A DNA stretch of 64,000 bases from NCBI GenBank assembly GCA_934254675.1, contig CAKQLP010000002.1:15731-79730 (forward strand), given 5' to 3'. The translations under genes and the position numbers were made by a program. The notes under the pieces were generated by a model that saw only the letters and a program-made list of their open reading frames with translations, had not been told where the DNA came from and made no database searches. Positions 7,843-60,007 of this stretch are shown here, piece by piece (within the stretch, counting starts at the first letter, position 1; each line of letters opens with the position of its first letter). This DNA is from an uncultured Alphaproteobacteria bacterium. GTDB taxonomy: Bacteria; Pseudomonadota; Alphaproteobacteria; RF32; CAG-239.

Positions 7843-9563
7843 TAATTTATTTTGTATAAAATATCTTTAGAACCAGTATTTATTTTTTCCAGCCATGGAT
7901 AAATTTGTTTGCCTGTTATGATTTTACCGTAAAATTTATCAATATTTTTATCTGGATAGATATAGTATTGGGAGTTAGAAAAATAACGATACGGAAGAAA
8001 TATATATTGAATTTGGTGTTTCTGCAATAACCTTTTTATTTCGGTTTCATCGGTTGAAAAGAATATTTTGTGATTGTCGGCTATGCCGGCGACGGCCGAG
8101 TGATAAGGTATGGCTACTGTTTTTATATTTTTATCAAAAATGAATTGAGGGGAGGCAAAGCGATCAGTTAAAATCACACTATTTTGCGGAATTTCTTCTG
8201 ATTTTATTGGATGTAAAGGTTCATATCTGAATGATGCTAATAAAAATAAAGCGGTGCAAATATAACCGAATGCTAAATATTTTGTATTTTGAGTTTTATA
8301 AGTTTTAAATAATAGTTTGTTGATAAAAATATTGTTTAAATAAGCTAAAATGCATAGTTCGTACAGAATAAAACGTTCTATAAAAAGGGATAGAAAACTA
8401 AAAAATACAAATAAAAATGCTAAATTAATTTCAATAGTGTGATTTTTTTGCGGTTTATAAAATAAAATCATCAATACTAAGACTGTTTCAAAAACAATCA
8501 TTTCTATCAAATAAACAAAGTGCCAAAGAGGTTTCATTTCTGTTATATATGGTAAAAAAGAATTTTTTATATTTTCATCATAAATTGAAGCGAAAATGAT
8601 AGATGTATTGAAAACATAACAGATGAATGTGAGAGAAACGGCTCCGCAGACAAGTGTGCCGAAAATTTTAGCAGATATTTTTTTTAGCTTAAACCAATAT
8701 AGTGTGTTAAACGAACTGTAAATTAAAAAAGTTATAACCACATGAATTGCTGAAAGTCTCGTGTTTTCAAAGCTGAAATAGCCTCTATAAGGGGGATTGA
8801 GAAGCCATGCTAAAATTGTTGCAATAAAAAGTCCTAAAGTGTAAGTTTTAATTGCATTTAATGAAATTTTATTAAACAGCCAGTTGAGAAAAAGCAGTCC
8901 TAAAATTGCAGCAACGAAAATAAATCCTTCCACGGCAGAAGAAATCCAGATGCCGCAGCCGGCTAGAATGCCGGCAAAAAATAAAAGGCGAAAACGCTCT
9001 TTGGCTAAGTTTAGCAAAACAGCGCTTATGTTATAGGCGAAAAATAAAAATATGACAGAATGGTGATCAGGTCGGTTAAAGTCAAAAACATTATTAAATT
9101 TAGTGAAAAAAGCAAACGAGAGGATAAAACTGAAAAGTAGAATTTTTGGCGTTTGTTTGACAAAGGGTTTTAATCCCCAAAAGACGACAATTAGACTTAA
9201 AGCCAAACAAAGCGGAGATAGAGCCATGCCGCTATAAAATATAGCTTCTTTAAGTGAAAAAAACGGTATCAGCGGTAAGGCTAAGATAGTCCAAATTATA
9301 TCCAATAGACGGGTAAAATGTAAAATTTCACCAAACGGATAATTTCCATAAGGATAAATCTGTTCATACCAACTGAAATTTTGCAACCAATAAATGATGC
9401 GGGTGGCATGGGTGTAACAATCTGTGCCAACATAAAATAATTTGTGAAATTGAATATATGTCAGAAGAATATCACCGCATGTGTAAATAGCGGTTATTCC
9501 CAAAATCCATAAATAAAGATGTTTTACAAAACAGTTGGCTGTTTGGGTTTGCACTTTGTTCAT
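7830..9563 (-). CDS. polytopic membrane protein (577 aa), possibly GT-C-type glycosyltransferase-like
   Basis: About 12 predicted hydrophobic helices followed by a ~130-aa soluble C-terminal domain. Abuts mtnN on the same strand (9563/9564), suggesting co-transcription. Family assignment is tentative. Confidence 0.45.
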   Translation of the reverse strand: MNKVQTQTANCFVKHLYLWILGITAIYTCGDILLTYIQFHKLFYVGTDCYTHATRIIYWLQNFSWYEQIYPYGNYPFGEILHFTRLLDIIWTILALPLIPFFSLKEAIFYSGMALSPLCLALSLIVVFWGLKPFVKQTPKILLFSFILSFAFFTKFNNVFDFNRPDHHSVIFLFFAYNISAVLLNLAKERFRLLFFAGILAGCGIWISSAVEGFIFVAAILGLLFLNWLFNKISLNAIKTYTLGLFIATILAWLLNPPYRGYFSFENTRLSAIHVVITFLIYSSFNTLYWFKLKKISAKIFGTLVCGAVSLTFICYVFNTSIIFASIYDENIKNSFLPYITEMKPLWHFVYLIEMIVFETVLVLMILFYKPQKNHTIEINLAFLFVFFSFLSLFIERFILYELCILAYLNNIFINKLLFKTYKTQNTKYLAFGYICTALFLLASFRYEPLHPIKSEEIPQNSVILTDRFASPQFIFDKNIKTVAIPYHSAVAGIADNHKIFFSTDETEIKRLLQKHQIQYIFLPYRYFSNSQYYIYPDKNIDKFYGKIITGKQIYPWLEKINTGSKDILYKINYQEF

Positions 9564-26256: not shown

Positions 26257-26403
26257 GACTGTTTTCCCCAGTGGTCGTTTTTGTTGAAAAGAATAAAATT
26301 AAAATGTTTTTGATTGTTTACAAAGCAAACAACAAGCTTGTAAATAGTCAAAACAATGCTTATCATTTTTCTGTTTAATATCTTTATCCATTGGAGAAAA
26401 CAA

Positions 26404-29400
26404 ATGAAGCTCAAACTGAATAAAAGACAATTGTTTTATGGATTGTTTATTACTGTATCTGTGATTGCGGGAGTTCTCACAGGCGTTTATTTTAGCGGTG
26501 AATATATTTTGGGTAAGGATAAACTGGAAATTGCTAAAATCGGCAAGATAGATGTTCCGGCACCAACTAACTACGGAGAAAACGGAACAGTTTATCCTCA
26601 GCCTTTGTCCGTGACTTTTAATACTTCTGTGGCGGCTTTGGATAAAATAGGGCAGAATATAAAAAACGGCATAAATATTCAGCCTGATATCCGAGGCAGT
26701 TGGCAATGGATTAGCGGTGATTGCTTAATATTTACACCGGAAACGGATTGGTTGCCGAACACGTCATATAAAGTGACGATGAGTAAAAAAATTTTTAGTC
26801 CGCAAATCAAAATTGACAGTTATGACTTTCGTTTTAATTCTCCGGAATTTGTAGGAAATGTTATTGCTTCGGATTTTTATGAAGATCCACGGGAACTAAA
26901 AAACAAATCGGTTACAGCCAGTTTTAAATTTACATATCCGTTGGATATAAAGGATTTGAAAAAAAATATTCAAATAAAAACCGTTGGCGGAGAAGATTAT
27001 GATTTTGATTATAAGCTGGAAGAACATAACACAGTTCTGCATATAGTTTCAAAACCTGTAAAAATTAAAGATGAAGAAGATTTTGCTAAAATAAATATTC
27101 AAAAATTGGGCAATGCGTATAATCAAAAATTGTTGAAAAACACATTGGAAACAACGGTTAAGATTCCAAGCAGCACGACTTTTTTTAAAATTAAAAGGAT
27201 TTTTTCTGAAATTGTTAGAAATCCTCAAAAAAATAATAATCCCGAACAAATTTTAACGGTTGAGTTTACAACAGCGGTTAACCAAGAAGAATTGGCTCAA
27301 GCATTAAAGTTAAAATATTCAAAAGAAGATTGCTCGGTTTTGAGAGAAAAATTGTCTAAAAATCAGATTTCCGAAACGGAAGATTTAAATTTAGAAAATG
27401 TTTCTCAAACTCAAACAGATGCAAAAACTCAAATGTTTAAATATGACAGTTTTGAAAATAAAGGCTGTTTGCTGGCTTTAATAGACAATAATTTAACGTC
27501 GATTGAAGGATTTAAACTGGGAAAAGAAGACTCTGTGTCCGCAACGGCGGTTAACATGGCTTTTTATCCTCTGGAAGCTGATATGGCGTTTGACGGTGCA
27601 ATCCTTTCTTTGCAAGGCAGTAGAAAAATTGGCTTTATATCCAGAGGAGTTAAAGAATTGGATGTGGATATTGCCAGAATTAAAGAAAGTGATTTGAATC
27701 ATTTAGTTACACAAACTTATGGAAATTTTGAAAAACCGAATTTTGAATATTATAATTTTTCTGAAGAAGATATTGCTGAGATTTTTCATAAAAAATTACC
27801 TATAATTTCAAAAAATCCGGCGGAAGCGAATTATTCATCTTTGGACTTAAATGAATATTTAGAAAATAGGAAAGGTGTGTTTTTGCTATCTATTTATGGT
27901 AAAAACGGACAAAAATCGAGTTATAAAAATCGACGTTTATTGTTAATGACTGATTTGGGAATTGTGGTGAAAGATAATGTTGATAAAACTCATGATGTTT
28001 TTGTTTCTAATATTGCTTTGGAACAGCCTGTTGTCGGCGCCGATGTTCAAGTTTTAGGAAAAAATGGTCAGCCGGTGCTGACAGCTGTCACAGATAAAAA
28101 CGGGGTGGCAAAATTAGGCGATTTTTCAGCATTTACAAATGAAAAATCAGCAGTTGTTTATAAGGTTATAAAAGATGGGGATATTTCTTTTTTGCCTATT
28201 AATAAAGAAGACCGAATGCTGAATATGTCGCGTTTTGATGTTGGCGGAGACTATATAGACAGTGGTAATGATGCGCAAAATTCATTAAAAGGGTATATTT
28301 TCAGTGATAGAGGCGTTTATCGACCTTCGGAAACCGGACATTTGGGAATTTTGGTGCGTCAAGCAAATTTAACTATACCTCAGCAGCTTCCTTTGGATTT
28401 AATAATCCGCAAACCAAATGGTGAAATTTTTGCAACCCAGAAACTTTTGAGCAATGCCGATGGCTTTATGTCCTATGATTTTGTTTTGCCTGAAACGGTA
28501 TTGACAGGGGTGTATTCTGCCGAACTTTGGCTTAATGGAAAAGATAATCAGTCAATGTTTGTCGCTTATTCTTTTTTTAGAGTGGAAGAGTTTATGCCGG
28601 ACACCATGAAAATAAAAGCGGAAATTTCTCAAAGTTTTTCACAAGGATGGTATAATAATAAAACTTTAACGATTGACGCGGATTTGCAAAATTTATATGG
28701 AATTCCTGCGGCCGGCCATGTTTTACAAACAGAATACAATCTGATGCCGGTAGATTTTAGTTTTGAGTCCTATAAAGAATATAAATTCTGTAATCCTTAT
28801 CAGGAAAATAAAGTGAAAACGCTAAAGGATACTTTGCCTGATGTAAAAACAGATAGTGACGGAAAAGCTGAAATATCTATCAATTTGAGTGATTTTACAC
28901 AAGGAATGTACAAAATACATGTCAATATAGACGGTTTGGAAAACGGTGGAGCCCGTGGTGTTGGCACAAGCGTTTCAGCTTATGTTTCTCCGGCGGATTA
29001 TTTAATTGGCTGGAAAACCGATGGAAAACTGGACTATATTTATAAAGGGGCTGAACGAAAAGTAGATTTGATAGCTGTAAATAATGAACTGCAAACAATT
29101 GAACTGAAAAATCTGTCGCTGAAATTGATGAAAAAAAATTATGTGTCCGCATTGGTGGAGCAAAATAACGGAACATATCAATATCAAACAGTGTCTAAAG
29201 AAATATTGGTTAAAAAATCACCATTAATTATTTCAGCTTTAGGATTTAGTCAAAATTTGGAAACGTCGGAAGCAGGGGATTATGTTTTACTTGTTTGCGA
29301 TAATGTCAGCGGAAAAATTTTGGCCAAAATTGATTATTCTGTGTCTGGAGAAATGAATACGACGCAAAAAATAGATAAAAACACTCAATTGGGGGTAAAA

Positions 29401-31908
29401 CTTGATAAAAAAGAATACAATGCTGGTGAAACAATAAAAATGCAAATATCCGCGCCGTATCAGGGATATGGATTAATTACAATTGAACGCGACAGTGTAT
29501 ATGCTTATAAATGGTTTAAAATGGATAGTCTGACGAAAAATGAGGAAATTGTTTTGCCGAAGGATGTTGAGATAAACGCTTATGTCAATATAGCGGTATT
29601 TCGTTCTTTGAGTTCTTCAGATATTTATCTGTCTCCGCTAAGTTATGCAACAGTTCCATTCAGTATAAATAAGGAAAATAGAAAATTGGATATAGAGTTG
29701 GAGGTTCCGCAAAAAATTAAATCAGGCGGCGATTTACAGGTAAAATATAAAACAGCACAGGATGCTAAAATAATTATTTATGGCGTAAATGAAGGTATTT
29801 TGCAGGTGAGCCGATATAATATGCCGAATTTACTGGATATTTTTATGGCCAAAAGAGCGTTGCGAGTGATTACATCACAGATTATGGATTTAGTTATGCC
29901 AGATATTCGTTTTTTCCGCAATTTAAGTTCAAGCGGTGGAGATGGCGGCGAATCTGATGATTTTTTGAATCGAAATTTAAATCCATTTGCCCGTAAAACC
30001 GATAAGCCTGTTGCTTTTTGGAGCGGAATACTTCAAAGTGACGGCAATGAAAACGTGTATTCTTATCATGTTCCTGAAACATTTAACGGAAAAATAAAAA
30101 TTATGGCTGTGGCCGTGTCTAAAGATAAATTTGGCAGCGCAGATAAATCTGTTTTGGTTCAAAGCGACTTTGCGCTTGTTCCGTCAGGTCCATACAATGT
30201 GACGCCAAGCGATGAATTTATTGTCGGTTTGAGTGTTGGAAATCTTTTGGATAATTTGGATGATAAAGTTGCTGTAAATGTGTCATCAGAAGATGATTTT
30301 GAATTTGTGGGCGACACGCAACAAATTGTGAATTTACCAGCTCAAAAAGAAACGTTTTTGAACTTTCGTTTGAAAGCCGGACCAAAATTGGGGGCAAAAA
30401 CAATTTTATTTACTGTGCAAAGTCTAAGTGATGCAAGTCGAAAGGCTGTTATGCCGTTTAATTTAAGTGTTCGTTCCGCATCGCCTTATAGCAGTAAATT
30501 TGATATGGGATTGGCTAAATCTTCATATTCTCCGAGTGATGTTGAAAATATGTATGATGAATATCGTGTACAAAAAATATCGGCGTCTTCTTCACCTTTG
30601 GTTTTTGCGCAAGGATTGTTGCAGTATCTAAATAAATATCCGCATTATTGCACCGAACAAACGGTTAGCAAAATTTTTCCGGCAATGGAATTGTTTTTTA
30701 AATCTCCGGAACTATTAAACGGAATGGACGTTTACACGTTATTTGATGATGCAATGCGTGTTTTGCGGGAACGTCAAGCCATTAATGGTGGTTTCGCTTC
30801 TTGGAATAGTGACGTTTTAGACGTTAACACAAGAGATTCTTTATATGCCTCTCATTTTTTGGTTTTAGCCAAAAAACATGGATTTAATGTTCCTGAATAT
30901 ATGCTAAATTCCGCTTTATCTTATTGTGAAAGTGTTGCCGCGCTTCAGCCGAGTGATGAAAATGATATATATCCGGCGTATGCTTCCTATATTTTAACGT
31001 TGAATGGAAACATAACAACAAATTATTTGCTGAATTTGGAAGAATTTTATAAGGCGGAATTTGCCAAAGATTGGCAAAAAAATATAAGCACTGTCTTTTT
31101 GGCGGCAAGCTATAAACTTTTGCAAGATGAAAAACATGCTTCTTTATTGTTTGGGCAATATGAAGATACTTCAAATGCAACGGCAAACGCTATGAATATT
31201 TATCTGACAGCTAAGCATTTTCCGGAAAAAATGAAAACATTGACTAAAAATAGTGTAGAGCAATTATTAAAGCCTTTGTCTGAGGGAAATTTTACGACTT
31301 ATTCTGCTGGATGGTCCGTTTTGGCATTGAATGCGTTTAACCAAATGGAAAAAGATAAAGAAATTGAATTTTCTCCATTGAAATCCAAAGCAGATCCTTT
31401 TCCGACAATGTATTACACGCCAGAAACAAAGAATATAAAAGTTTCGGCTCCGTATCCTTTTTATTATGTAAATGCGCAGCAGGGTTTTTCAAAAAATTTG
31501 AACATAAAAGCTTATTCAAATGGATTGGAAGTGAGTAAAACATATTTTGATAGAAACGGGCAAATTGCAACGCATGCTAAACTGGGTGACGTTTTAACTG
31601 TTAAAGTAAATTATCGCAGTAATGATAAAGAACCTATATTTGATGTCGCTTTTGTTGATTTGTTTGCCGGATGCTTTGAAATGGTGGATAATTCTTTGGA
31701 AACCGGAAAAGATACAACCAACTCTGAAATTAGAGAAGACAGGGTAAATGTATATGCTCCGGCATTTGTGTATGAACAATCTTTCAGTTATAAAGTTAAA
31801 GTTGTTGCGGAAGGCACGTTTATTTTACCGGCGGTTTATGCTTCAGCAATGTACCAACCTTTGGCGCGTGCAAATTCCACTATGTCTAAGATAGTTGTCG
31901 GGGAATAA
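26404..31908 (+). CDS. alpha-2-macroglobulin family protein with intact CTEQ thioester
   Basis: About 1830 aa with an N-terminal signal-anchor and MG-domain-like repeats. Thioester motif YCTEQTVSK lies near the C-terminal third. Immediately followed by pbpC. Confidence 0.85.
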   Translation: MKLKLNKRQLFYGLFITVSVIAGVLTGVYFSGEYILGKDKLEIAKIGKIDVPAPTNYGENGTVYPQPLSVTFNTSVAALDKIGQNIKNGINIQPDIRGSWQWISGDCLIFTPETDWLPNTSYKVTMSKKIFSPQIKIDSYDFRFNSPEFVGNVIASDFYEDPRELKNKSVTASFKFTYPLDIKDLKKNIQIKTVGGEDYDFDYKLEEHNTVLHIVSKPVKIKDEEDFAKINIQKLGNAYNQKLLKNTLETTVKIPSSTTFFKIKRIFSEIVRNPQKNNNPEQILTVEFTTAVNQEELAQALKLKYSKEDCSVLREKLSKNQISETEDLNLENVSQTQTDAKTQMFKYDSFENKGCLLALIDNNLTSIEGFKLGKEDSVSATAVNMAFYPLEADMAFDGAILSLQGSRKIGFISRGVKELDVDIARIKESDLNHLVTQTYGNFEKPNFEYYNFSEEDIAEIFHKKLPIISKNPAEANYSSLDLNEYLENRKGVFLLSIYGKNGQKSSYKNRRLLLMTDLGIVVKDNVDKTHDVFVSNIALEQPVVGADVQVLGKNGQPVLTAVTDKNGVAKLGDFSAFTNEKSAVVYKVIKDGDISFLPINKEDRMLNMSRFDVGGDYIDSGNDAQNSLKGYIFSDRGVYRPSETGHLGILVRQANLTIPQQLPLDLIIRKPNGEIFATQKLLSNADGFMSYDFVLPETVLTGVYSAELWLNGKDNQSMFVAYSFFRVEEFMPDTMKIKAEISQSFSQGWYNNKTLTIDADLQNLYGIPAAGHVLQTEYNLMPVDFSFESYKEYKFCNPYQENKVKTLKDTLPDVKTDSDGKAEISINLSDFTQGMYKIHVNIDGLENGGARGVGTSVSAYVSPADYLIGWKTDGKLDYIYKGAERKVDLIAVNNELQTIELKNLSLKLMKKNYVSALVEQNNGTYQYQTVSKEILVKKSPLIISALGFSQNLETSEAGDYVLLVCDNVSGKILAKIDYSVSGEMNTTQKIDKNTQLGVKLDKKEYNAGETIKMQISAPYQGYGLITIERDSVYAYKWFKMDSLTKNEEIVLPKDVEINAYVNIAVFRSLSSSDIYLSPLSYATVPFSINKENRKLDIELEVPQKIKSGGDLQVKYKTAQDAKIIIYGVNEGILQVSRYNMPNLLDIFMAKRALRVITSQIMDLVMPDIRFFRNLSSSGGDGGESDDFLNRNLNPFARKTDKPVAFWSGILQSDGNENVYSYHVPETFNGKIKIMAVAVSKDKFGSADKSVLVQSDFALVPSGPYNVTPSDEFIVGLSVGNLLDNLDDKVAVNVSSEDDFEFVGDTQQIVNLPAQKETFLNFRLKAGPKLGAKTILFTVQSLSDASRKAVMPFNLSVRSASPYSSKFDMGLAKSSYSPSDVENMYDEYRVQKISASSSPLVFAQGLLQYLNKYPHYCTEQTVSKIFPAMELFFKSPELLNGMDVYTLFDDAMRVLRERQAINGGFASWNSDVLDVNTRDSLYASHFLVLAKKHGFNVPEYMLNSALSYCESVAALQPSDENDIYPAYASYILTLNGNITTNYLLNLEEFYKAEFAKDWQKNISTVFLAASYKLLQDEKHASLLFGQYEDTSNATANAMNIYLTAKHFPEKMKTLTKNSVEQLLKPLSEGNFTTYSAGWSVLALNAFNQMEKDKEIEFSPLKSKADPFPTMYYTPETKNIKVSAPYPFYYVNAQQGFSKNLNIKAYSNGLEVSKTYFDRNGQIATHAKLGDVLTVKVNYRSNDKEPIFDVAFVDLFAGCFEMVDNSLETGKDTTNSEIREDRVNVYAPAFVYEQSFSYKVKVVAEGTFILPAVYASAMYQPLARANSTMSKIVVGE

Positions 31909-34228
31909 GTTGAGAGGATGTGTCCGCAAATTATATCAGAACGTGTTTATTCGTTTTGCTTTGCTTTTATTATTGATTACTACGGTCGTTTATATTCTTG
32001 TCCCAAAGCCGGATTTGTACAACAAATACAGTTTTTCCAGCGCTGTTTATGATACAAACGGCAAACTGCTTAAACTCTCTTTGAGCAACGATGATAAATA
32101 TCGATTGTTTGTTTCTTTGCAAAATGTTCCAATTGAAGCCCGTCAGGCTTTGTTATTATACGAAGATCAATATTTTTATTATCATATCGGAGTTAATCCG
32201 TTTAGTCTATTTCGGGCAATTTTAGCAATGTCAAGCGGAGGAAGACGCCAAGGCGCGTCAACAATAACCATGCAAGTGGCGCGCATTGTGTTTCAGATAA
32301 ATTCAACCTCTTTTTTAGGAAAAATAGAGCAAATATTCCGTGCACTGCAAATTGAATTATTTTATAGCAAAAATGAAATTCTTGAAGCTTATTTTAATTT
32401 GGCGCCCTATGGTGGAAATATTGAAGGCATCGGGGCGGCGGCGTTAATCTATTTTCAACAAAACGCTGATAAACTTAATTTACCACAGATTTTGGCATTG
32501 ACAGTAATACCTCAAAATCCATCTAAACGTTCTTTGCTGACAGAGATTAATCGTAAACAGAATAGTGTTGCGTATCAAAGAATAAAAAATATATGGCTTG
32601 AAAAATATCAACATTCCCAAAATGAATATTTAAATCTTCCTTTGTCATCATCAGTATATTTGCCAGATAACGCATCGCATTTTACTCGAAGAATGTTTGC
32701 CGCTTATCAGGGTGAAATAAAGACGACATTAAATCTGAATTATCAAAAAGATTTGGAAGACATTATTCGCCGATATGTGGCTGAACAACGGCAAAAAGGT
32801 GTGTTCAATGCATCAGCCCTATTGTTAGATAGTCAAGACATGTCTGTTTTGGCTTATGTCGGTTCAGCAGATTTTTATAATAAAAACATTTCAGGACAAG
32901 TTGATGGTATAGTTGCCCGCCGTTCTCCCGGTTCAACGCTAAAACCCTTTGTTTATGCCTTAGCTTTGGAGCAGGGATTGATACATCCTTTGAGTATGCT
33001 TAAAGATGTTCCCAGCCGATATGGATTTTATTCTCCGGAAAATTTTGACCATACTTATTATGGTCTTTTAAATGCAACGAGAGCTTTGACATTAAGCAGA
33101 AATATTCCGGCGGTGGAACTTTTAATGCAAGTTGGTGAGAAAAATTTTTATGAATTGTTAAAAAAATGTGGGGTTAACTTGCCCAAAAAAGCGGATTATT
33201 ATGGTTTAGCGATGGCATTGGGCGGTGTCGAGGTGTCCATGGAAAATTTAGCCTCAATGTATGCTATGCTTGCCAATAATGGAAAATTTTCAAACATTGT
33301 TTTTCTAAAAAGCGAAAGTGCGGATTTTCAGCAATTGTTATTGCCTGAAGCGGCTTTTCTAACACGTTACATGTTGTTTCAAAATGAAAGCATAGATAAA
33401 AATTTGTCAAAGTCCATTAAAAGAAAAGCTATTTCCGCCGCATGGAAAACCGGAACTTCGTTTAGTTATAAAGATGCTTGGACAGCAGGAATTTTTGGAA
33501 AATATGTGTTAGTTGTGTGGCTTGGTAATTTTAATGGAAAATCCAATTCTGCTTTTGTGGGTAGAAAACTGGCTGCGCCTTTATTCTTTAGGATAGCCAG
33601 AAGATTTATGGATAAGAATTTATTGTCGTCTTATAAAGACGAAACAGAATATTTAAATTTGGCTAAAGTTAAAGTTTGTCAGGATACGGGAGATTTAGCT
33701 ACGGAATTTTGCTATAAAACAGTTGAAACCTATTTTATTCCCGGGGTGACTTCAATTAAAAATTCAAATATTACCCGTTTGATTCCTATTGATAAAAAAA
33801 GCGGGTTGAGAGCTTGCCGACACACTCCGCCGCAAACGGAACTCAAAAGCTATAATTTTTGGCCGTCAGAGATATTGTCTGCATATCAAAAAGCTGGAAT
33901 AAATTTGCAAAAACCGCCGGCGTTTAAAGAAAATTGTCAAAATGTGGAAGATTTTGTTCAAGGAACACCTCCAAAAATATTGAGACCATATAATGGAGAA
34001 AAAATTTTACTCAGTTCTTTGCAAGGCGGAAAAATTTTGGCTGAGGCGACTGTTGACGCGGATACTAATGAAGTTTACTGGTTTATAAATAACCGGTTAT
34101 GCGGAGTTTCTAAAGCTAATGAAATTTATGAAATAACTCCTCCTCAATATGGTCGCTTAGAAGTTAAAGCCGTAGATGGCTTGGGGCGGCAGACAGCTGT
34201 TTCAATACAGATACAGTCATTAAATTAA
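31895..34228 (+). CDS. pbpC: penicillin-binding protein 1C (bifunctional transglycosylase/transpeptidase)
   Basis: GT51 motifs (EDQYFYYHIGVNP, RQGASTITMQ). Transpeptidase motifs STLKPF (SxxK), SRN and KTGTS. Overlaps the a2m stop by 14 nt. Confidence 0.85.
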   Translation: MSGNKLRGCVRKLYQNVFIRFALLLLLITTVVYILVPKPDLYNKYSFSSAVYDTNGKLLKLSLSNDDKYRLFVSLQNVPIEARQALLLYEDQYFYYHIGVNPFSLFRAILAMSSGGRRQGASTITMQVARIVFQINSTSFLGKIEQIFRALQIELFYSKNEILEAYFNLAPYGGNIEGIGAAALIYFQQNADKLNLPQILALTVIPQNPSKRSLLTEINRKQNSVAYQRIKNIWLEKYQHSQNEYLNLPLSSSVYLPDNASHFTRRMFAAYQGEIKTTLNLNYQKDLEDIIRRYVAEQRQKGVFNASALLLDSQDMSVLAYVGSADFYNKNISGQVDGIVARRSPGSTLKPFVYALALEQGLIHPLSMLKDVPSRYGFYSPENFDHTYYGLLNATRALTLSRNIPAVELLMQVGEKNFYELLKKCGVNLPKKADYYGLAMALGGVEVSMENLASMYAMLANNGKFSNIVFLKSESADFQQLLLPEAAFLTRYMLFQNESIDKNLSKSIKRKAISAAWKTGTSFSYKDAWTAGIFGKYVLVVWLGNFNGKSNSAFVGRKLAAPLFFRIARRFMDKNLLSSYKDETEYLNLAKVKVCQDTGDLATEFCYKTVETYFIPGVTSIKNSNITRLIPIDKKSGLRACRHTPPQTELKSYNFWPSEILSAYQKAGINLQKPPAFKENCQNVEDFVQGTPPKILRPYNGEKILLSSLQGGKILAEATVDADTNEVYWFINNRLCGVSKANEIYEITPPQYGRLEVKAVDGLGRQTAVSIQIQSLN

Positions 34229-52128: not shown

Positions 52129-52282
52129 ATTTAAAAAAACGCCTGATTCGGGCGTTTTTTTGTGCAAAAAATAAAATTGTAAAAAAAATTGCCAAAATTA
52201 AACAAAAAACTTGACAATAAAATAAATTGAGATAATATGAAACTGTTTCTTGTATTATTTAACTATATTTAAATTTATTGTT

Positions 52283-52696
52283 ATGAAAAGGTTTTTTTCT
52301 TTCGTTGTGATTTTTTGTCTCAGCGTTGTCTTGTTTTCATCTTGTGGTGGAAGCAAAAAGGACGGCAGTGAAGGGTACACTCAAAAGGAACTCTTCCACA
52401 GCAGTGAACGTTACGATGCTTTAAAGTATCTCAACCGTCTTAACTGGTGTAAGGCCGGTCCTGACGGAAAGGTCTTTTTAGGCTCGGTTGACAATGGTAT
52501 TGATATAACCGATTTGCGGTATGTCAATGCCCCCGAAGTAGTACCAACCTCTACTGATCAGGTTGTGGTTTGGAAACACGGCAAGCAGTTTCTTCTTGTT
52601 AAATGTGATGAGAACGTGCCTGTGATGTCTCGTGTTCGCGTGGCTCAGGATTGGTGCCGAGATAACTTTGGCGATGAACCGCAAACCCTTGAATAG
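52283..52696 (+). CDS. hypothetical lipoprotein (137 aa)
   Basis: Signal peptide with lipobox FSSC. Terminator hairpin AGAGAAAGT-ctatgaa-CTTTCTCT plus T-run at 52716-52745. Confidence 0.4.
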   Translation: MKRFFSFVVIFCLSVVLFSSCGGSKKDGSEGYTQKELFHSSERYDALKYLNRLNWCKAGPDGKVFLGSVDNGIDITDLRYVNAPEVVPTSTDQVVVWKHGKQFLLVKCDENVPVMSRVRVAQDWCRDNFGDEPQTLE

Positions 52697-53299: not shown

Positions 53300-53653
53300 A
53301 TGGAAAAATTACCGCATTTACATCATCATAATAAGGAAACGCATATTTTAGAAATTCCGTTGGAAAAAGCGTTTTTGCGTACGGCGGAAACATTTCAGCT
53401 TATTTCCGATGCGACCAGATTGAAAATTTTGTGGTTGCTGTGTCATAATGAAGTTTGTGTGAATAATATTGCCGTATTGGTTAAAATGAGCTCTCCGGCC
53501 GTATCCCATCATTTGCGTTTGTTAAAACAGGCTGGTTTGATTGAAAGTCGCCGCGAAGGTAAAGAAATGTATTATAAATTGGCGGAGACATCGGAAGCCG
53601 CATTGTTACACCGCGCTTTGGATGATATTTTGGACATCAAATGCCCATTATAA
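53300..53653 (+). CDS. ArsR/SmtB-family metalloregulatory transcriptional repressor
   Basis: wHTH core LKILWLLCHNEVCVNNIAVLVKMSSPAVSHHLRLLKQAGLIESRREG. His-rich N-terminus (LPHLHHHNKETH) and Cys pair CHNEVC near the alpha3 position. Confidence 0.75.
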   Translation: MEKLPHLHHHNKETHILEIPLEKAFLRTAETFQLISDATRLKILWLLCHNEVCVNNIAVLVKMSSPAVSHHLRLLKQAGLIESRREGKEMYYKLAETSEAALLHRALDDILDIKCPL

Positions 53654-53679
53654 AAACAATTAAAAGGGGAATGTCAGAT

Positions 53680-54123
53680 ATGAAAAAAGTGTTGTTAATT
53701 TTATTGTCATTTTTGTATGTTAGTAAGGTGGCGTTAGCGGAAGAATTAAATATTAATGAATATAAGCAAGTATTGACACAATGTTATAATAATTTTGAAC
53801 ATAATGAAAAGCGTTGTTCAGATTGGAATTCAAGATGTTTCAATCATCTTCAGGCGGAGCAAGAAAAACTGCAGAAATGTTATCAGAAAGTTGCTGTTAG
53901 TATTTTTACGGAATTTTATGATTTATCAAATGAAGATGCTCTGCAAAAATTTGATAATTATAAAAATTTTTTACAGATTGAGTATAAGTTTATTTATAGT
54001 GATTCAATTTATTGTAAGAAAAATAATTGTGGCATAGCACCAAATTTATATAGTGAATATGCCACAAGCCAAGGTTTATATAATTATATTAATAAAACAA
54101 TAAATTATATTGAAAATCAATAA
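53680..54123 (+). CDS. small secreted Cys-containing protein, paralog A of tandem family
   Basis: Signal peptide MKKVLLILLSFLYVSKVALAEE, nearly identical to paralog B. Shares a ..YC..N.CGI.P.. C-terminal motif with paralog C. Confidence 0.5.
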   Translation: MKKVLLILLSFLYVSKVALAEELNINEYKQVLTQCYNNFEHNEKRCSDWNSRCFNHLQAEQEKLQKCYQKVAVSIFTEFYDLSNEDALQKFDNYKNFLQIEYKFIYSDSIYCKKNNCGIAPNLYSEYATSQGLYNYINKTINYIENQ

Positions 54124-54145
54124 GTATTGCTTCTTCTTATTCAGT

Positions 54146-54227
54146 CTTATGCCGAGGAGGGGAAAGTTTTGTCAGACATACTGGAACATCTGATTTATAT
54201 GAATAATGTAAAAGACGGATACTAATC
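54146..54227 (+). repeat. 82-bp perfect copy of the 3' end of paralog C (56395..56476), out of frame downstream of paralog A
   Basis: CTTATGCCGAGGAGGGGAAAGTTTTGTCAGACATACTGGAACATCTGATTTATATGAATAATGTAAAAGACGGATACTAA occurs identically at both places. Confidence 0.7.
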
Positions 54228-54842
54228 AGAGATTTTTAATCCAACGCATTTTTCAAAGTCATCAATGGTATTTTGATGAAAATATTTTTCAGAATAAACA
54301 TTACCTGTTAGGCAATGTAATTTATCATTATTCTCTAATAAGCAATTCATTTTAGATGAATATTGTGAACTGCGTGAATCCTTAACTAGACAAGAACATT
54401 TTTCGCATTCATTTACATCTACGGTTTTATAATATGTTCCACATAATTCAGTACGATATTCATTATTTTTATAATGGCTTAAAAGATATTCTTCATCTTT
54501 ATGTGTATAACATTTTATATTATTTAAACTTTCGCCATCTATATTTTCACAGAAAAAACTTAAAATTTCTGTTTGTTTAGTTTGATTATTAGTAATTGTT
54601 CCAGAACAGCCAGCTGTTCCGCAATCATCTTCGGAATGCAAAGGACTAAGCCTCCAGAAAACATCTACCGATAAAGAATATTGTTTATAAATTCCTGTAT
54701 ATTCGCTTTCTAATTCTGAATTATTTTGACTTAAAATACTAGCTTGTTTCAGAATAAATGGACCACAAGGCCAATCTTGCGGCAAAGCATAAGCCTTACC
54801 GCAAAATATAACCGCAAATAAAATAATCAGACTATTTTTCAA
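54222..54842 (-). CDS. secreted Cys-rich protein (206 aa, 17 Cys)
   Basis: Signal peptide MKNSLIILFAVIFCGKAYA. Many Cys pairs (C..C, CEKCSC). No recognised domain. Confidence 0.45.
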   Translation of the reverse strand: MKNSLIILFAVIFCGKAYALPQDWPCGPFILKQASILSQNNSELESEYTGIYKQYSLSVDVFWRLSPLHSEDDCGTAGCSGTITNNQTKQTEILSFFCENIDGESLNNIKCYTHKDEEYLLSHYKNNEYRTELCGTYYKTVDVNECEKCSCLVKDSRSSQYSSKMNCLLENNDKLHCLTGNVYSEKYFHQNTIDDFEKCVGLKISD

Positions 54843-54929
54843 ATAATGTACTCTGTTTAGATTTATATTAAAATAAAAATATAATGAATTAGAAAAGAAA
54901 ACAAGGAATTTTTAGAGAGGCAAAATAAA

Positions 54930-54989
54930 CCTCTTGACTTTGTTTATATTAAAATTATTATAAAAACAATTAAAAGGGGAATATCAGAT
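54930..54989 (+). promoter_or_regulatory. conserved promoter/leader module of the tandem secreted-protein family (copy 1)
   Basis: CCTCTTGACTTTGTTTATATTAAAATTATTATAAAAACAATTAAAAGGGGAAT contains TTGACT-N17-ATTATA and a GGGGAA RBS. Near-identical copy at 55680..55741, partial copy at 53645..53679. Confidence 0.5.
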
Positions 54990-55442
54990 ATGAAAAAGGT
55001 GTTGTTGTTTTTATTGTCATTTTTGTATGTTAGTAAAGTGGCGTTAGCGGAAGAAATAGAGAAAACTAAGTTTGATAGTGTAGAGAAACAAATGGATAAA
55101 TATAAAAATGAATGCTTTAATAAATATGCTTTTCCCAAAGGAATTGATAATTATAGTATGTATAATGATGATATCAAAAACGGAGATTTTAGATATCATC
55201 AATGTTTAAAAAATGTTATTATTAGAAAAATAAAAGAAATATCATCTGCTGACGATGCGAAACTAATGATAGAAGATTTGAACAAAATACAAGATTCTTT
55301 TAGTGGCTTTTATTGGACATTGTACAATAGAAAAGATACGGGAGTATTTGGTAGAGGAATAAACGATGCCGTTCTAGGACGTCGTTTTGAGGACATCCTA
55401 GAAGACATTTTGTACTATCAATCTACATATAATATTGATTAA
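54990..55442 (+). CDS. small secreted protein, paralog B of tandem family
   Basis: Signal peptide MKKVLLFLLSFLYVSKVALAEE. 150 aa. Confidence 0.5.
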   Translation: MKKVLLFLLSFLYVSKVALAEEIEKTKFDSVEKQMDKYKNECFNKYAFPKGIDNYSMYNDDIKNGDFRYHQCLKNVIIRKIKEISSADDAKLMIEDLNKIQDSFSGFYWTLYNRKDTGVFGRGINDAVLGRRFEDILEDILYYQSTYNID

Positions 55443-55679
55443 GGATAATTTTTTAATAATTCTTGTGCTTTTTTACATTCATCTAAAAATCGTTGTTTTA
55501 TAGAATCTTGTACTTCAGGTGTGCTTTTACTGAAATATCTTTTGACATTGTATCGTTCGTTATAGATGAGGTTAATAATATCCTTATTGCTAAGAAGAGA
55601 AGCTCAAACCGCAGAAGATGGAAATACGGCATTAGAAAATAATGCAGAATCGGCTGAGTAATAAAGCTTTTTTGTGTTA

Positions 55680-55741
55680 AACCTCTTGACTTTATTTATA
55701 TTAAAATTATTATAAAAACAATTAAAAGGGGAATATTGGGT
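55680..55741 (+). promoter_or_regulatory. conserved promoter/leader module (copy 2)
   Basis: AACCTCTTGACTTTATTTATATTAAAATTATTATAAAAACAATTAAAAGGGGAATATTGGGT. Confidence 0.5.
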
Positions 55742-56476
55742 ATGAAAAAGGTGTTGTTGATTTTTTTATTGCTGTGTGGTAATAATGCTTGGGCTGATGT
55801 TTGCTATGATATTGGCGAACAGACGGCTGAGAAGGCTTTTAAGCTTATTCAACAGCAAAAAGAAATATATGAGTATTGTTCTCTTTGTGATAATGCCAAA
55901 CCAATTATTATTCCTGTTCAAAATGTAGTTAAAGGAAGTCCTATATCAGTTAATAATAAGAAACTTGATTTAGTTCATACTTATTACAAAAATAAAGGTA
56001 AATTTATAAATTTAGGAGTTGCATCAGGCTGTATTAAAGCCGGAGAATATAATATTGCAACAGAGCTGGCAGACTTGCCGGTTAAGCAGCCTACTGAAAT
56101 AGATTATCGTCAAATAAGTCGGCAGCAAATGAAAGATATTTTTGATAAATGCAGTAACTCAGCAAAAAGTGAAAAATCTACAATATCAGAAATAGAAAAA
56201 CAAAATAAGCAAATAAATAATTGTTTGATTGAAGTTATCAAAACAGAAATTAAAAAGGGATTTGACAATAACCAGCAAGCTCAAATGTTTAGTTATTTGG
56301 AGCAAGTTCATAAGTCTGTATTTAATTTCTATTACGGAATAGCAGCCGAGAGCAAATATTGCAGTGGGGAATGCGGAATAATGCCAAGTATTCAGCCTTA
56401 TGCCGAGGAGGGGAAAGTTTTGTCAGACATACTGGAACATCTGATTTATATGAATAATGTAAAAGACGGATACTAA
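55742..56476 (+). CDS. secreted Cys-containing protein, paralog C of tandem family (244 aa)
   Basis: Signal peptide MKKVLLIFLLLCGNNAWA. C-terminus ..KYCSGECGIMPSIQPYAEEGKVLSDILEHLIYMNNVKDGY, whose coding sequence is duplicated at 54146..54227. Confidence 0.5.
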   Translation: MKKVLLIFLLLCGNNAWADVCYDIGEQTAEKAFKLIQQQKEIYEYCSLCDNAKPIIIPVQNVVKGSPISVNNKKLDLVHTYYKNKGKFINLGVASGCIKAGEYNIATELADLPVKQPTEIDYRQISRQQMKDIFDKCSNSAKSEKSTISEIEKQNKQINNCLIEVIKTEIKKGFDNNQQAQMFSYLEQVHKSVFNFYYGIAAESKYCSGECGIMPSIQPYAEEGKVLSDILEHLIYMNNVKDGY

Positions 56477-56502
56477 TATAAAATTAATATCCGTCTTAAT
56501 AT

Positions 56503-57651
56503 TTATTTTATTCTAAACCGTTCAAATCTATTAGGTAATCCATGACTATATTCTTTATAGTTGGAGTTGCTGTTTGTTTCAATTTGATGTTCAAAATCAG
56601 CTTTTCTGAAATCAACAATTGCATTGTTGACACGTATAATTTCTTCAGGTGTCAAATTATTTAAAGCTCTTATTGTCTGAGAACCAAAGATACCATCTTC
56701 ATCAACTTGCATATTTGTTTGTTGGTTAATGGCTCTCTGAGCCCATTGAGCAGGAGCAGTTGGACTATGATTAAAAAATGAATCAAACATTATTTCTTGT
56801 AGTGTTGGAGCTATAATTTCTCCAATGCGATATTTATCAAAATAATCCAATCTAGCGATTTGCTTAACTTGGTCTCGTGTTATATCTTTAATATTATCAG
56901 GGTATTGCTCAGCTAATTCAGGATGTGCAATTTTAAATCTCTCCAAGGAACTTTGCTGAATCCCCATATTAGTAGGAGTATCAATACGATTATTCCTATC
57001 TTCATATCCACCTTCTTCTTCTAAGCTTTTATTTATAACTCTATTAAAAATAGCTGCTTTATTGTTTTCATTCGTAGTTTGATGATGTGAAACATTATTA
57101 AGTGTGGGTACTGGAGTTTTTATGTCATATTCAGAAATAGTACAAGTAGTTTTAGGTCTATTCCAAGAAAAAGTAGTTTGATTTTGCATTTTATTTGCTT
57201 CAGTGTTCCACGGAGTTGGTGTTTGGTTTAATGAAGTGTTGTTATTTTGTGTCAAGATATTATTTGACTGTCCAAAAGCCGTATTTTGCTGCTGGTTTGT
57301 CTGCGGAACCGGGGCTATTGTGCCAGAGTTCTGATACAGTCCATAGTTCTGATTTTTAAGCGAATTGGTGACGTTTTCAATATTATCACTGATGTTGGAG
57401 GAGCCGAAACCATAGTTATTAGCCGGATTGCCGCCCCAAAAGTTGTTGCTGTACTGCGGATAGTCTTGCGTTATGCCTTGATTGTTGTAGTTTTTTATCA
57501 GTTCATTTTCCCGATTAGTTCTCGCCATTTGATAAGATATTTCATCGCGTAATGAAAAATTTCTGTGGTCAACGCCGTAAGAATCTATTTTGTTTTCACC
57601 ATTTTCATAGCCTAATTGAGATTTAAAATTTCTGTACATATTTTTCTCCAA
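56503..57651 (-). CDS. GH108-like N-acetylmuramidase domain protein with PG-binding-like C-terminus and long N/Q-rich N-terminal region
   Basis: The ..LEEEGGYEDRNNRIDTPTNMGI.. segment matches the EGGY....D.GG.T..GI signature of GH108. The C-terminal ..VDEDGIFGSQTIRALNN.. resembles the PG_binding_3 module. Residues ~60-200 are low-complexity, N/Q/T/S-rich. No signal peptide. Confidence 0.5.
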   Translation of the reverse strand: MEKNMYRNFKSQLGYENGENKIDSYGVDHRNFSLRDEISYQMARTNRENELIKNYNNQGITQDYPQYSNNFWGGNPANNYGFGSSNISDNIENVTNSLKNQNYGLYQNSGTIAPVPQTNQQQNTAFGQSNNILTQNNNTSLNQTPTPWNTEANKMQNQTTFSWNRPKTTCTISEYDIKTPVPTLNNVSHHQTTNENNKAAIFNRVINKSLEEEGGYEDRNNRIDTPTNMGIQQSSLERFKIAHPELAEQYPDNIKDITRDQVKQIARLDYFDKYRIGEIIAPTLQEIMFDSFFNHSPTAPAQWAQRAINQQTNMQVDEDGIFGSQTIRALNNLTPEEIIRVNNAIVDFRKADFEHQIETNSNSNYKEYSHGLPNRFERFRIK

Positions 57652-57872
57652 ATTTTATTGTTTTTAGCTTATTAAATAATTTATTTCTTATTATATACGC
57701 GCGCAAAATTAAACCGCAAAGCCTTAATCAGCTGCAATCATAAAACAAGATAAATTATTTTAATGTGGTATTATTATCATAAATATCTTTTAAAGTCAAG
57801 TTTAAAATAAGAAAAATATAAAATATTCTAATTATGTAAAATAAATATATTATTCTATAGGTGGAAACATAA

Positions 57873-57938: not shown

Positions 57939-58154
57939 ATGCGAAAAACATATCAATTGGAAGATTTGGATTGCGCCGTGTGTGCGGAAAAAATGGAAAA
58001 AGCCATAAAAGAACTTGAAGGAATTGAGTATGCCAATGTTAATTTTATAACACAAAAAATGACGATTGAAACAAGTCAGAACATTGAGGAAATGATGGAG
58101 AAAATTGTGAAATTAGTGGCAAAAATCGAACCCGACTGCACAATTGTATTATAG
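57939..58154 (+). CDS. heavy-metal-associated (HMA) domain metallochaperone (CopZ-like)
   Basis: 71 aa with the metal-binding motif LDCAVCAEK (CxxC) in a ferredoxin-like fold. Confidence 0.7.
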   Translation: MRKTYQLEDLDCAVCAEKMEKAIKELEGIEYANVNFITQKMTIETSQNIEEMMEKIVKLVAKIEPDCTIVL

Positions 58155-58162
58155 GTGGACAG

Positions 58163-60007
58163 ATGACTAAAAAATTACGTAAATTATTAAATAAAATTAT
58201 CATCGCGGCAGCGTTTTTCGGCTTTGCTTTTCTGCCGTTTCCGCCGCTCGTGACACTGCTTTGTTTTGCTGTGTCTTATGGCATTGTCGGGTTGCCGATT
58301 ATAAAGAAAGCCGTGAATAATATTAAAAACGGCGAAGTTTTTGATGAAAATTTTTTAATGACAATTGCCACTTTGGGGGCTGTCGCTTTGGGCGAATATC
58401 CCGAAGCGGTGGCTGTTATGCTGTTTTTCCAGATAGGAGAGTTTTTTCAAAGCTACGCGGTTAACCGCTCTCGCAAATCTATTGCCGCTTTGATGAATAT
58501 TCGGCCAGATTTTGCCAGAATACAGAAAAACGGCGAATGGATAAAAGTTAGTCCGGAAGAAGTAAAAAAAGGCGAGGTTATAGAAATTTATTCGGGTGAA
58601 AAAATTCCGCTAGATGGTGTGATTATCAGCGGAGTTTCCAGTTTGGACACATCTTCTTTGACAGGTGAAACGTTGCCGCGTGAAGTAAAAAAAGGCGACA
58701 ATGTTTTGAGCGGGAGCATCAATTTAGGCGGTGTTTTGTCGGTTAAAACCACAAGCGTTTATGCGGAATCCACAGTGGCTAAAATTTTAGATTTGGTGGA
58801 AAACGCCTCTTCTAAAAAAGCCGAGGTTGAAAACTTTATTTCAAAATTTGCGCGTTGGTACACGCCATCGGTGGTGATTGTGGCCGTTTTGTTGGCTTTT
58901 TTGCCGCCGGTATTCGGTGAAAGCTTGTCGGTTTGGGTATATCGCGCCATTACATTTTTGGTAATTTCCTGTCCTTGCGCGTTGGTGATATCTATCCCGC
59001 TCAGCTTTTTTGGCGGAATTGGCGCGGCTTCCAAATGTGGGATTTTGATAAAAGGCAGTAATTATTTAGAGGCGTTGGCGCAAACTGAAATCGTGGTGTT
59101 TGATAAAACCGGAACTTTAACCAAAGGCGAATTTGCGGTTGCGGAAATTAAGCCGGAAAATAATATTTCCAGCGCGGAATTGTTGGAAATTGCCGCACAT
59201 TTGGAAGCCTTTTCGGCGCATCCGATAGCGATTTCAATAAAAAAAGCTTATGGCAAAAAGCCTGATTTGCAACGGGTGTCCGATGTTAGAGATTATTTCG
59301 GTAAAGGTGTTTGCGGAAATTTTGATAAAGATGAAATTGTATTAGGAAACGCGCAAATAATGCGGGATAAAAGGGTGAAAGTACCGGAAGTTAACTCAAC
59401 CGGAACTATTGTTTATGTGCTGAAAAACGGACATTATCTAGGCTGTATTATTATTGAAGATAAAATCAAAGATGACGCACTATCCGCCATTAGACAACTG
59501 AAAAAATTGGGTGTTTCGCAAACTGTTATGTTGACCGGAGATAGAGAAAATAACGCTCAAAGCGTGGCGCAGAATCTTAATTTAGATAAATATTGTGCCG
59601 AATTGCTTCCGGCTGACAAAGTGCAAAAATTTGAGGAACTATTAGAAACTAAAAATTCCAAAGGAAAAGTTTTGTTTGTGGGAGATGGTATTAACGACGC
59701 GCCGGTTTTGGCTCGTTCGGATATCGGGGTGGCAATGGGCGGAATTGGCTCTGACGCGGCAATAGAGGCGGCTGATGTGGTGATTATGACCGACGAACCT
59801 TCAAAAATAGCCAAAGCTATTGAAATTTCGCAAAAAACATTGCGTTTGGTGCACGAAAACGTGGTGTTTATTTTGGCGGTGAAATTTGCGGTATTGGGTT
59901 TGGGGGCTATTGGCTATGCTTCTATTTGGGCGGCCGTGTTTGCCGATGTCGGGGTTTCTGTGCTCTCCATTTTGAACGCTATGCGCGCTTTAAGATTTTA
60001 TAAATAG
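58163..60007 (+). CDS. heavy-metal-translocating P1B-type ATPase (no fused HMA domain)
   Basis: TM CPC motif (SCPCALVIS), phosphorylation site DKTGTLT, GDGINDAP hinge. 614 aa. Confidence 0.85.
   Translation: MTKKLRKLLNKIIIAAAFFGFAFLPFPPLVTLLCFAVSYGIVGLPIIKKAVNNIKNGEVFDENFLMTIATLGAVALGEYPEAVAVMLFFQIGEFFQSYAVNRSRKSIAALMNIRPDFARIQKNGEWIKVSPEEVKKGEVIEIYSGEKIPLDGVIISGVSSLDTSSLTGETLPREVKKGDNVLSGSINLGGVLSVKTTSVYAESTVAKILDLVENASSKKAEVENFISKFARWYTPSVVIVAVLLAFLPPVFGESLSVWVYRAITFLVISCPCALVISIPLSFFGGIGAASKCGILIKGSNYLEALAQTEIVVFDKTGTLTKGEFAVAEIKPENNISSAELLEIAAHLEAFSAHPIAISIKKAYGKKPDLQRVSDVRDYFGKGVCGNFDKDEIVLGNAQIMRDKRVKVPEVNSTGTIVYVLKNGHYLGCIIIEDKIKDDALSAIRQLKKLGVSQTVMLTGDRENNAQSVAQNLNLDKYCAELLPADKVQKFEELLETKNSKGKVLFVGDGINDAPVLARSDIGVAMGGIGSDAAIEAADVVIMTDEPSKIAKAIEISQKTLRLVHENVVFILAVKFAVLGLGAIGYASIWAAVFADVGVSVLSILNAMRALRFYK

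Follow-up and report, generated by a model that had tools for sequence, protein, structure and literature searches.

What are small secreted proteins for when their genes stand in tandem behind near-identical upstream units and their mature parts differ strongly? The question is raised by a 64 kb stretch of DNA (hereafter the window; positions 15,731 to 79,730 of contig CAKQLP010000002.1, assembly GCA_934254675.1) from an uncultured alphaproteobacterium of the human gut (GTDB lineage RF32; CAG-239), in which we examined a cassette region at 53641–56476. Three plus-strand genes in this region, A (53680–54123; 147 aa), B (54990–55442; 150 aa), and C (55742–56476; 244 aa), all start with MKKVLL, as an earlier note made from the letters alone had reported; a fourth gene, D (54222–54842; 206 aa, TTG start), lies among them on the minus strand and also encodes a secreted protein. 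Most likely these genes specify antidotes against cell-wall-degrading toxins, both the organism's own and those of rival strains. To the reading that the cassette serves a polymorphic toxin locus as its array of immunity genes, with C cognate to the adjacent toxin gene E, and with A, B, and D as orphans, we give a probability of roughly 85%. The earlier note had likened the architecture to immunity/effector arrays, contingency loci, and variable antigens; the first of these, with the modules as recombination handles, is supported, and the other two are not.

A Conserved N-Terminal Domain Carries Exchangeable C-Terminal Parts

The locus is explained by E (56503–57639, minus strand), a GH108 gene convergent with C that the earlier note did not discuss. 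It encodes 378 aa from MYRNF, in an open reading frame (ORF) that reaches back to a TTG at 57651, and has no signal peptide. The protein is composed of an N-terminal domain of ~95 aa (NTD, 57355–57639), a linker rich in N, T, and Q, a GH108 muramidase domain, and PG_binding_3 (about 56578–57030). Pfam GH108 (PF05838) was matched with an E-value of 9e-11 (42.6 bits vs. a cut-off of 21.2), PG_binding_3 was matched as well, and the EGGY catalytic motif of GH108 is present (...EEEGGYEDRNNRID...). Relatives in the PDB are 2IS5, 2IKB, 6V40, and 6V3Z, which are of the NMB1012 and TtsA types.

The NTD itself matched nothing in Pfam, NCBIfam, or PHROG. An exhaustive search with a hidden Markov model (HMM) placed it in a family of 273 clusters at 50% identity, with 20 positions invariant across 55 proteins. 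In all 150 listed hits (60–740 aa) the domain begins no later than about residue 50, and mostly at residue 1; it is common to proteins with quite different C-terminal parts (57–99% identity). On contigs encoding C homologs, NTD proteins adjoin small secreted proteins. Scanning one genome per species yielded 130 NTD loci in reference genomes, often several per genome; below, individual loci are cited by our L numbers. The hosts are almost all metagenome-assembled genomes (MAGs) labeled Alphaproteobacteria or proteobacteria, other bin labels accounting for 3 of the 80 loci among those listed, and the sources are human gut (Hadza, Nepal, and Brazilian cohorts), rumen, and horse faeces.

When sets of 55 and 81 family members were scanned with Pfam, GH108 was found in 11 members of each. 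The other C-terminal domains were PG_binding_3, VgrG3-like_C, SLT, Pesticin, phage lysozyme, Tlde1/YkuD, PBECR2 nuclease, and SAA. Most members have a C-terminal part without an annotated domain, and the recognizable ones are mostly peptidoglycan hydrolases. This combination is characteristic of a polymorphic toxin family, one in which the known warheads would act mostly against peptidoglycan, in the periplasm.

A different role for E has been weighed against this one. Its catalytic part resembles TtsA-type and NMB1012-type GH108 proteins and also matches a PHROG endolysin family (the NCBIfam "holin-associated N-acetylmuramidase" model scored below its cut-off, 42.9 vs. 240 bits), as might be expected of a housekeeping or secretion-assisting muramidase of the TtsA type, or of a prophage endolysin, with A–D as regulators or accessories of cell-wall remodeling. 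We consider this improbable, however, as the same NTD is attached to unrelated killing domains (nuclease, Tlde1, pesticin-type, and VgrG3-type lysozymes) and occurs in several copies per genome, no holin or phage genes lie nearby, and the strain-to-strain presence, absence, and replacement described below are typical of weapons.

Three further features of the family were observed. The SAA domain (serum-amyloid-A-like, PF00277, best E-value 1.8e-17), an unexpected warhead, forms the C-terminal domain of three to four NTD toxins and is also found in two ORFs neighboring NTD toxins; the SAA-tipped toxins are among the toxin genes of L025–L104, e.g., members of alignments A3 and A9. An XRE-like helix-turn-helix (HTH) protein with a conserved C-terminal "...FAPFREYF..." domain is encoded directly upstream of the toxin in 15 of 80 loci (e.g., L009 8097–8897 and L060 9105–9881) and is missing from the window; it may be a dedicated toxin regulator. 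Lastly, at L012 5789–6829 (also in L013 and L014) nothing but an in-frame stop divides an NTD ORF truncated at its N terminus from a GH108 ORF. Two more intact NTD toxins with other tips stand in tandem upstream in L012, one followed by a multi-transmembrane protein and the other by a split F-type gene (see below for F).

Secreted Proteins Pair With Toxin Tips by Type

By tblastn, all NTD loci were searched for reference toxin domains and for the mature parts of A, B, C, D, and a further small secreted protein, F. A was found with the "classic" GH108 type (GH108c) in five locus groups (L006–8, L012–14, L026, L052, L068), where the two genes converge. F adjoins a third GH108 type (GH108v3) in seven (L015/16/25, L035, L066, L067, L074, L079, L092), B a VgrG3-like lysozyme (VgrG3C) in four (L020, L046, L067, L089), and the C-type helical domain the GH108 type of the window (GH108w) in another four (the window, L004, L033, L034). 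D accompanies a domain with the pattern GAIGKYQI...FKRIETRLRxFEK (KYQ) in three (L001, L068, L102), on the same strand and directly downstream of the toxin; this KYQ domain had no match in Pfam or the PDB.

Altogether, 23 adjacent pairs of five types were counted, and cross-pairings were zero. Label shuffling gives such an outcome a chance of ~8e-14, a figure that is overstated given the common ancestry of the loci and the manual choice of locus groups. The toxin next to B in L020 has the same NTD (P0058), and its tip matches VgrG3-like_C (Pfam E-value 3e-33) and PDB 4NOO (1e-10). What is found, then, is a conserved head with variable C-terminal tips and an adjacent gene that co-varies with the tip, as in polymorphic toxins.

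Properties of the Small Secreted Proteins

Signal peptides are a first indicator of where these proteins would act. The leaders show an n-region, an h-region, and an AxA-type cleavage site, predicted at ALA/EE in A (leader MKKVLLILLSFLYVSKVALA, then EE) and in B, at ...NNAWA/DV in C, and at ...GKAYA/LP in D. The 22-residue leaders of A and B had been called identical; they agree at 21 of 22 residues (I7 vs. F7). Likewise, the 17 cysteines once credited to D number 13 by our count, 12 of them in the mature part. Cysteines in the mature parts are even in number throughout (A 6, B 2, C 8, D 12), and on the basis of leaders and cysteines A–D look like periplasmic inhibitors.

The cysteine motif that the earlier note ascribed to all three plus-strand proteins (YC..xCG) occurs in A and C and is missing from B. 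In family alignments, the A-type and C-type domains have a common invariant four-cysteine framework. The description of the three genes as paralogous holds for the upstream modules and only in part for the mature proteins: hhalign relates B to the C-terminal domain of C with 92% probability (E-value 7e-7), vs. 13% for A with C and 15% for A with B. No recognized family had been assigned to these proteins, and our searches agree; Pfam, NCBIfam, and PHROG scans of A, B, C, and D did not rise above noise, and PDB sequence searches with B, C, and a B-family profile found no match. The C family is small (19 proteins among 5.8 billion), and the families of small secreted proteins are restricted to genomes carrying NTD toxins.

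The structure prediction that the earlier note had proposed as a check gave models for B and C, built with AlphaFold2 from family alignments. B is modeled as a helical bundle (mean predicted local distance difference test, pLDDT, 75; predicted template modeling score, pTM, 0.70). C, with a mean pLDDT of 72, is modeled with an alpha/beta domain at the N terminus and, at the C terminus, a four-helix bundle (pLDDT 80–96). Foldseek returned only generic helical bundles for the C model from the PDB, with a best E-value of 0.25, which is not significant; in structural comparison the DUF1311 protein 3GI7 and an uncharacterized Burkholderia protein, 6AR7, also score. Because there is neither a significant Foldseek match nor sequence similarity, the fold resemblance of the modeled proteins is suggestive and is not proof of homology.

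Another possible role would be that of periplasmic inhibitors (PliC/MliC/PliG- or LprI-like) directed at host or phage lysozymes and unconnected to the neighboring toxin. This too seems a long shot. No Pfam match to DUF1311 (PF07007), MliC, or PliC was seen even at E ≤ 1, the families are confined to genomes with NTD toxins, and neither co-variation with toxin tips nor gene pairs overlapping at their 3' ends are expected of inhibitors aimed at a host.

The alpha/beta domain of C (55742–56086; residues ~19–115) is more conserved than its helical domain (58% vs. 41% identity in L004), and C-type alpha/beta domains are joined to a C-type or an A-type helical domain depending on the genome. A further cassette type of ~151–155 aa (P0051, P0052) has B's exact leader and its first eight mature residues in front of an unrelated body; a relative of it is found at L001 7529–7984, just upstream of C.

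Organization of the Cassette Region

The plus-strand genes are preceded by a shared unit, hereafter the module. A complete copy stands before B (54926–54989) and before C (55678–55741); each has the hexamers TTGACT and TATTAT 16 nt apart (spanning 54934–54961 for B and 55686–55713 for C), followed by a ribosome-binding site (RBS), which is AAAGGGG in the B module, and by the ATG. Together with the first codons it forms a 90-nt direct repeat, 93% identical between the B and C copies, in agreement with the near-identity noted before. Also borne out is the statement that A keeps the 3' half of the module (53647–53679, RBS AAAGGGG and spacer): its copy of the repeat is 70% identical overall, with similarity to the B module only from 53647 on. 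Its −35 half has been replaced by the end of an ArsR-family regulator gene (53300–53653, plus strand), the stop codon of which (53651–53653) lies inside the remaining half. Transcripts of A may come from read-through of the regulator gene, or may start at a weak promoter-like site (53631–53660). As for the promoter that had been read into the module, the hexamers hold up as consensus matches only, and such matches are not enriched in this AT-rich window (34 found vs. 28 expected).

In the 64 kb, the 25-mer TTATAAAAACAATTAAAAGGGGAAT has exactly three copies, each of them within the cassette, vs. zero expected from shuffles. None was found in any locus beyond this species group; a related form of the module exists in the sister species (L029). 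In the window, B and C have the complete promoter/RBS/leader unit, as does every copy of A, B, C, and F examined in related strains; the window's A is the only copy minus the −35 half.

The cassette region is a low-GC island (26–32% vs. 41–48% GC) between the ArsR-family regulator and genes for HMA and Cd-Zn P-type ATPase proteins (57939–60007), with which the regulator probably belongs across the island. An Rfam scan of the window found a tRNA-Thr gene alone and no leader RNA element, no recombinase is present, and no inverted repeats flank the promoters. The arrangement is no artifact of assembly, since it recurs in two independent metagenome assemblies (L017 and L018), with identities of 99.9% and 100% along as much as 5.2 kb.

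Relics and Rearrangements Among Related Strains

Only C has its toxin partner in the window; a classic GH108 toxin for A is not in the window. For the orphans, close copies are known from elsewhere. B is 100% identical to the copy next to its toxin in L020, and A 94% identical to the one next to its toxin in L026. D has a cognate copy in L001 that is only about 80% identical, and the 96–97% identical copies in L015 and L025 are themselves orphans. Remnants of former partners are also present. A 165-nt stump (55439–55603, minus strand), preceded by an in-frame stop, covers the final 55 codons of a gene for a VgrG3-like lysozyme toxin and differs by one mismatch from the 3' end of the intact L020 toxin gene. 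The cassette-remnant DNA that had been reported proves to be an 89-nt relic of C (54138–54226, plus strand), 99% identical to the 3' end of C at 56389–56477; it adjoins the 3' end of D as full-length C does in L001, L015, and L025, where C is convergent with D.

Variant loci with cassette genes 94–100% identical, from the same species or very close relatives, were then compared; all comparison data are metagenome assemblies or MAGs, mostly short-read. The order is A-D-B-C-toxin(GH108w) in the window, L017, L018, and L019; A-C-D-B-F-toxin(GH108v3) in L015, L016, and L025; A-B-toxin(VgrG3C) in L020; and B-F-A-toxin(GH108c) in L026. The cassettes are thus reshuffled, with breakpoints between arrangements falling at the module, as the strain comparison proposed earlier was meant to reveal; homology between the window and L015, for instance, stops at 55764, within the leader codons of C. 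Over 87 nt, the module of B in the window differs by 8–10 nt from that of its orthologs in L025 and L015, vs. 3 nt from their F modules. This mosaicism, with the finding of B's leader on an unrelated body, implies that modules recombine with one another and act as cassette boundaries. At the other end, the region upstream of E (57640–57826, minus strand) is conserved jointly with the NTD-coding part in related strains and species: L001, L025, and L026 align from 57076, 57301, and 57341, respectively, through 57814–57848, and 57076–57826 is conserved across variants. This stretch is the probable right-hand homology anchor for module replacement.

Conserved 5' modules with variable bodies, cassette remnants, and strain-to-strain variation are also what a contingency locus or a set of variable surface or secreted antigens, evading host or phage by gene conversion or phase variation, would display, but that idea is largely refuted and highly unlikely, given that Tandem Repeats Finder detected only four to five trivial two-copy AT-rich repeats and no phase-variable or simple-sequence repeats, that no promoterless silent cassettes were seen that could be donors, that the bodies are unrelated or very distantly related rather than versions of one protein, and that body type follows one adjacent toxin type over 23 loci.

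Two observations concern the wider setting of the island. In L025, the GTDB representative genome (CAKQLF010000008.1, 9826–14775), the same island, at about 97% nucleotide identity and with a 215-nt internal deletion in B, has other chromosomal surroundings, with an rpoC-like gene alongside; this may reflect either mobility of the island or rearranged contigs. A small lipoprotein gene of the window (52250–52696) has a homolog at L001 10860–11342, directly beside the toxin in the sister species, which suggests that the island occupies a related neighborhood in both species.

A Model for the Locus

The locus anatomy, toxin family, type-specific pairing, strain polymorphism, and fold resemblance were computed directly; from them we infer a model that covers export, binding and neutralization, promoter activity, the protection that orphans would afford, and the way in which recombination proceeds. 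E would combine a conserved NTD, presumably for trafficking, with a low-complexity linker and an exchangeable killing domain at the C terminus, in this case a putative GH108 N-acetylmuramidase with a peptidoglycan-binding domain that would act in the periplasm. Once exported, it would attack the peptidoglycan of competitors. A, B, C, and D would be exported to the periplasm by the Sec pathway, each binding and blocking one toxin domain: C would neutralize E in the periplasm of the producer and its siblings, A would target another GH108 type, B the VgrG3-like lysozyme, and D the KYQ domain. Having been kept after the loss of their toxins, A, B, and D may protect against sister or co-resident strains that still make them.

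Each plus-strand immunity gene would be its own transcription unit, with a module of ~65 nt for promoter and RBS plus the first leader codons. Such a module would provide uniform expression independent of the toxin, with AAAGGGG as a presumably strong ribosome-binding site. The modules and the conserved 5' part of the toxin gene could also supply the homology for swapping, adding, and deleting tip and immunity modules. Arrays might then change by two routes: a new toxin tip with its immunity module may replace the old tip, anchored at the NTD-coding 5' region, or recombination may take place between modules and relic repeats.

Several points weigh against an immunity array. No secretion apparatus is linked to the toxins in either the window ORFs or the locus neighbors. 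The large ORFs of the window include no T6SS (type VI secretion system) genes or other secretion system, and comprise housekeeping genes, an alpha-2-macroglobulin/PBP1C pair, and unknowns. Clustering of neighbors over 80 loci returned only immunity-like genes and the HTH protein, which precedes 15 toxins. When 136 neighboring ORFs from 57 loci were scanned with Pfam, the 25 families seen most often included no VgrG, Hcp, PAAR, adaptor, TpsB, or type I secretion system (T1SS) family; these ORFs encode further toxin domains and housekeeping proteins. The NTD contains no T6SS targeting domain (MIX, FIX, PAAR) known to Pfam, NCBIfam, or PHROG, and literature searches on secretion systems in RF32-type gut Alphaproteobacteria returned nothing. 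Convergent immunity genes are moreover unusual for T6SS-type effector-immunity pairs. Distant GH108w-like toxins (28–31% identity; L037, L041, L067, L103) lack a C-type neighbor. Repeats of 87–90 nt could yield chimeric joins in short-read assemblies, although the main variants recur in two to three independent assemblies. Finally, toxicity, binding, and export rest on inference. Delivery by an unlinked T6SS or another system may account for the missing apparatus.

Comparison With Known Systems

The closest model for the locus is provided by the immunity-gene arrays of V. cholerae, in which orphan immunity genes accumulate as T6SS effectors are displaced one after another (Kirchberger et al., 2017; PMC5361080). 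Both systems have one effector with its cognate immunity gene, followed by older orphans near-identical to the cognates of other strains, as well as 3' stumps of displaced effectors and a conserved effector 5' region that serves as recombination anchor. In contrast to V. cholerae, there is here no linked T6SS cluster, VgrG, or adaptor; the putative toxin is small and stand-alone, with an NTD that lacks annotation; the immunity genes are mostly convergent; and each plus-strand gene has its own promoter/RBS/leader module, forming second homology tracts. Another system for comparison is the VgrG3/TsiV3 pair of V. cholerae (PDB 4NOO, 4NSO, 4NSR). B and C have no detectable sequence similarity to TsiV3, and Foldseek lends no support; the toxin domain is fused to the NTD and not to a VgrG spike, and the partner of C is a GH108 domain rather than a VgrG3-type one.

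Modular bacteriocins that target peptidoglycan, such as colicin M with Cmi, the ColM family, and pesticin with Pim (Ghequire et al., 2018; PMC5821083), share other traits. They are likewise small modular toxins with an N-terminal uptake part and a C-terminal cell-wall-targeting domain; their immunity protein is periplasmic and disulfide-bonded, with a gene that is typically downstream in the opposite direction; and their loci are chromosomal and recombination-prone. Pesticin-type and nuclease tips are found in the NTD family as well, and the low-complexity linker behind its N-terminal head is a further reminder of colicin M/Cmi-type and pesticin-type bacteriocins. Unlike in the bacteriocins, the NTD has no homology to colicin or pyocin translocation or receptor domains, and no lysis gene or SOS box was identified. 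A tentative lead to uptake via an outer-membrane receptor is an ID[ST]YGVD motif that may be comparable to a TonB box.

The constant head, variable tips, and linked immunity genes are shared with polymorphic toxin systems (Zhang et al., 2012; PMC3482391), although the present head lies outside Pfam, NCBIfam, and PHROG, the domain catalog of Zhang et al. not having been part of this comparison. As far as the outline of acquired interbacterial defense islands in gut Bacteroidales goes (PMC10470768), orphan immunity genes gather there too in a gut bacterium, but the present array stands next to an active toxin gene and not in a separate mobile island. It is conceivable, if doubtful, that the NTD represents an undescribed delivery route (a diffusible bacteriocin or an unrecognized export cargo signal) for dozens of different toxins that act in the periplasm, in a family specific to gut and rumen Alphaproteobacteria, and that the modules are a means of capturing immunity cassettes without an integrase.

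Other Genes in the Window

Positions 26356–34228 encode a bacterial alpha-2-macroglobulin (1850 aa) and, behind it, a PBP1C-type penicillin-binding protein, a usual gene pairing. For the large ORFs at 3471–5729, 6271–7842, and 7830–9563 (752, 523, and 577 aa), Pfam gave no match at E ≤ 1e-5.

Implications

The locus would be a known kind of bacterial warfare locus, built from previously unannotated families. A function can be proposed for several families of "hypothetical" secreted proteins, and a sizeable unannotated toxin family is recognized in little-studied, uncultured Alphaproteobacteria of gut and rumen, together with a set of predicted toxin-antidote combinations that covers four or five types of peptidoglycan hydrolase. 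The array would be a second, independent example of immunity arrays built by displacement, this one outside T6SS clusters. What may be novel here is above all what the NTD does and what part the modules play. A portable promoter/leader module for each cassette has not been described in the systems compared here, and these modules bear on how bacteria gather defenses against the weapons of their neighbors.

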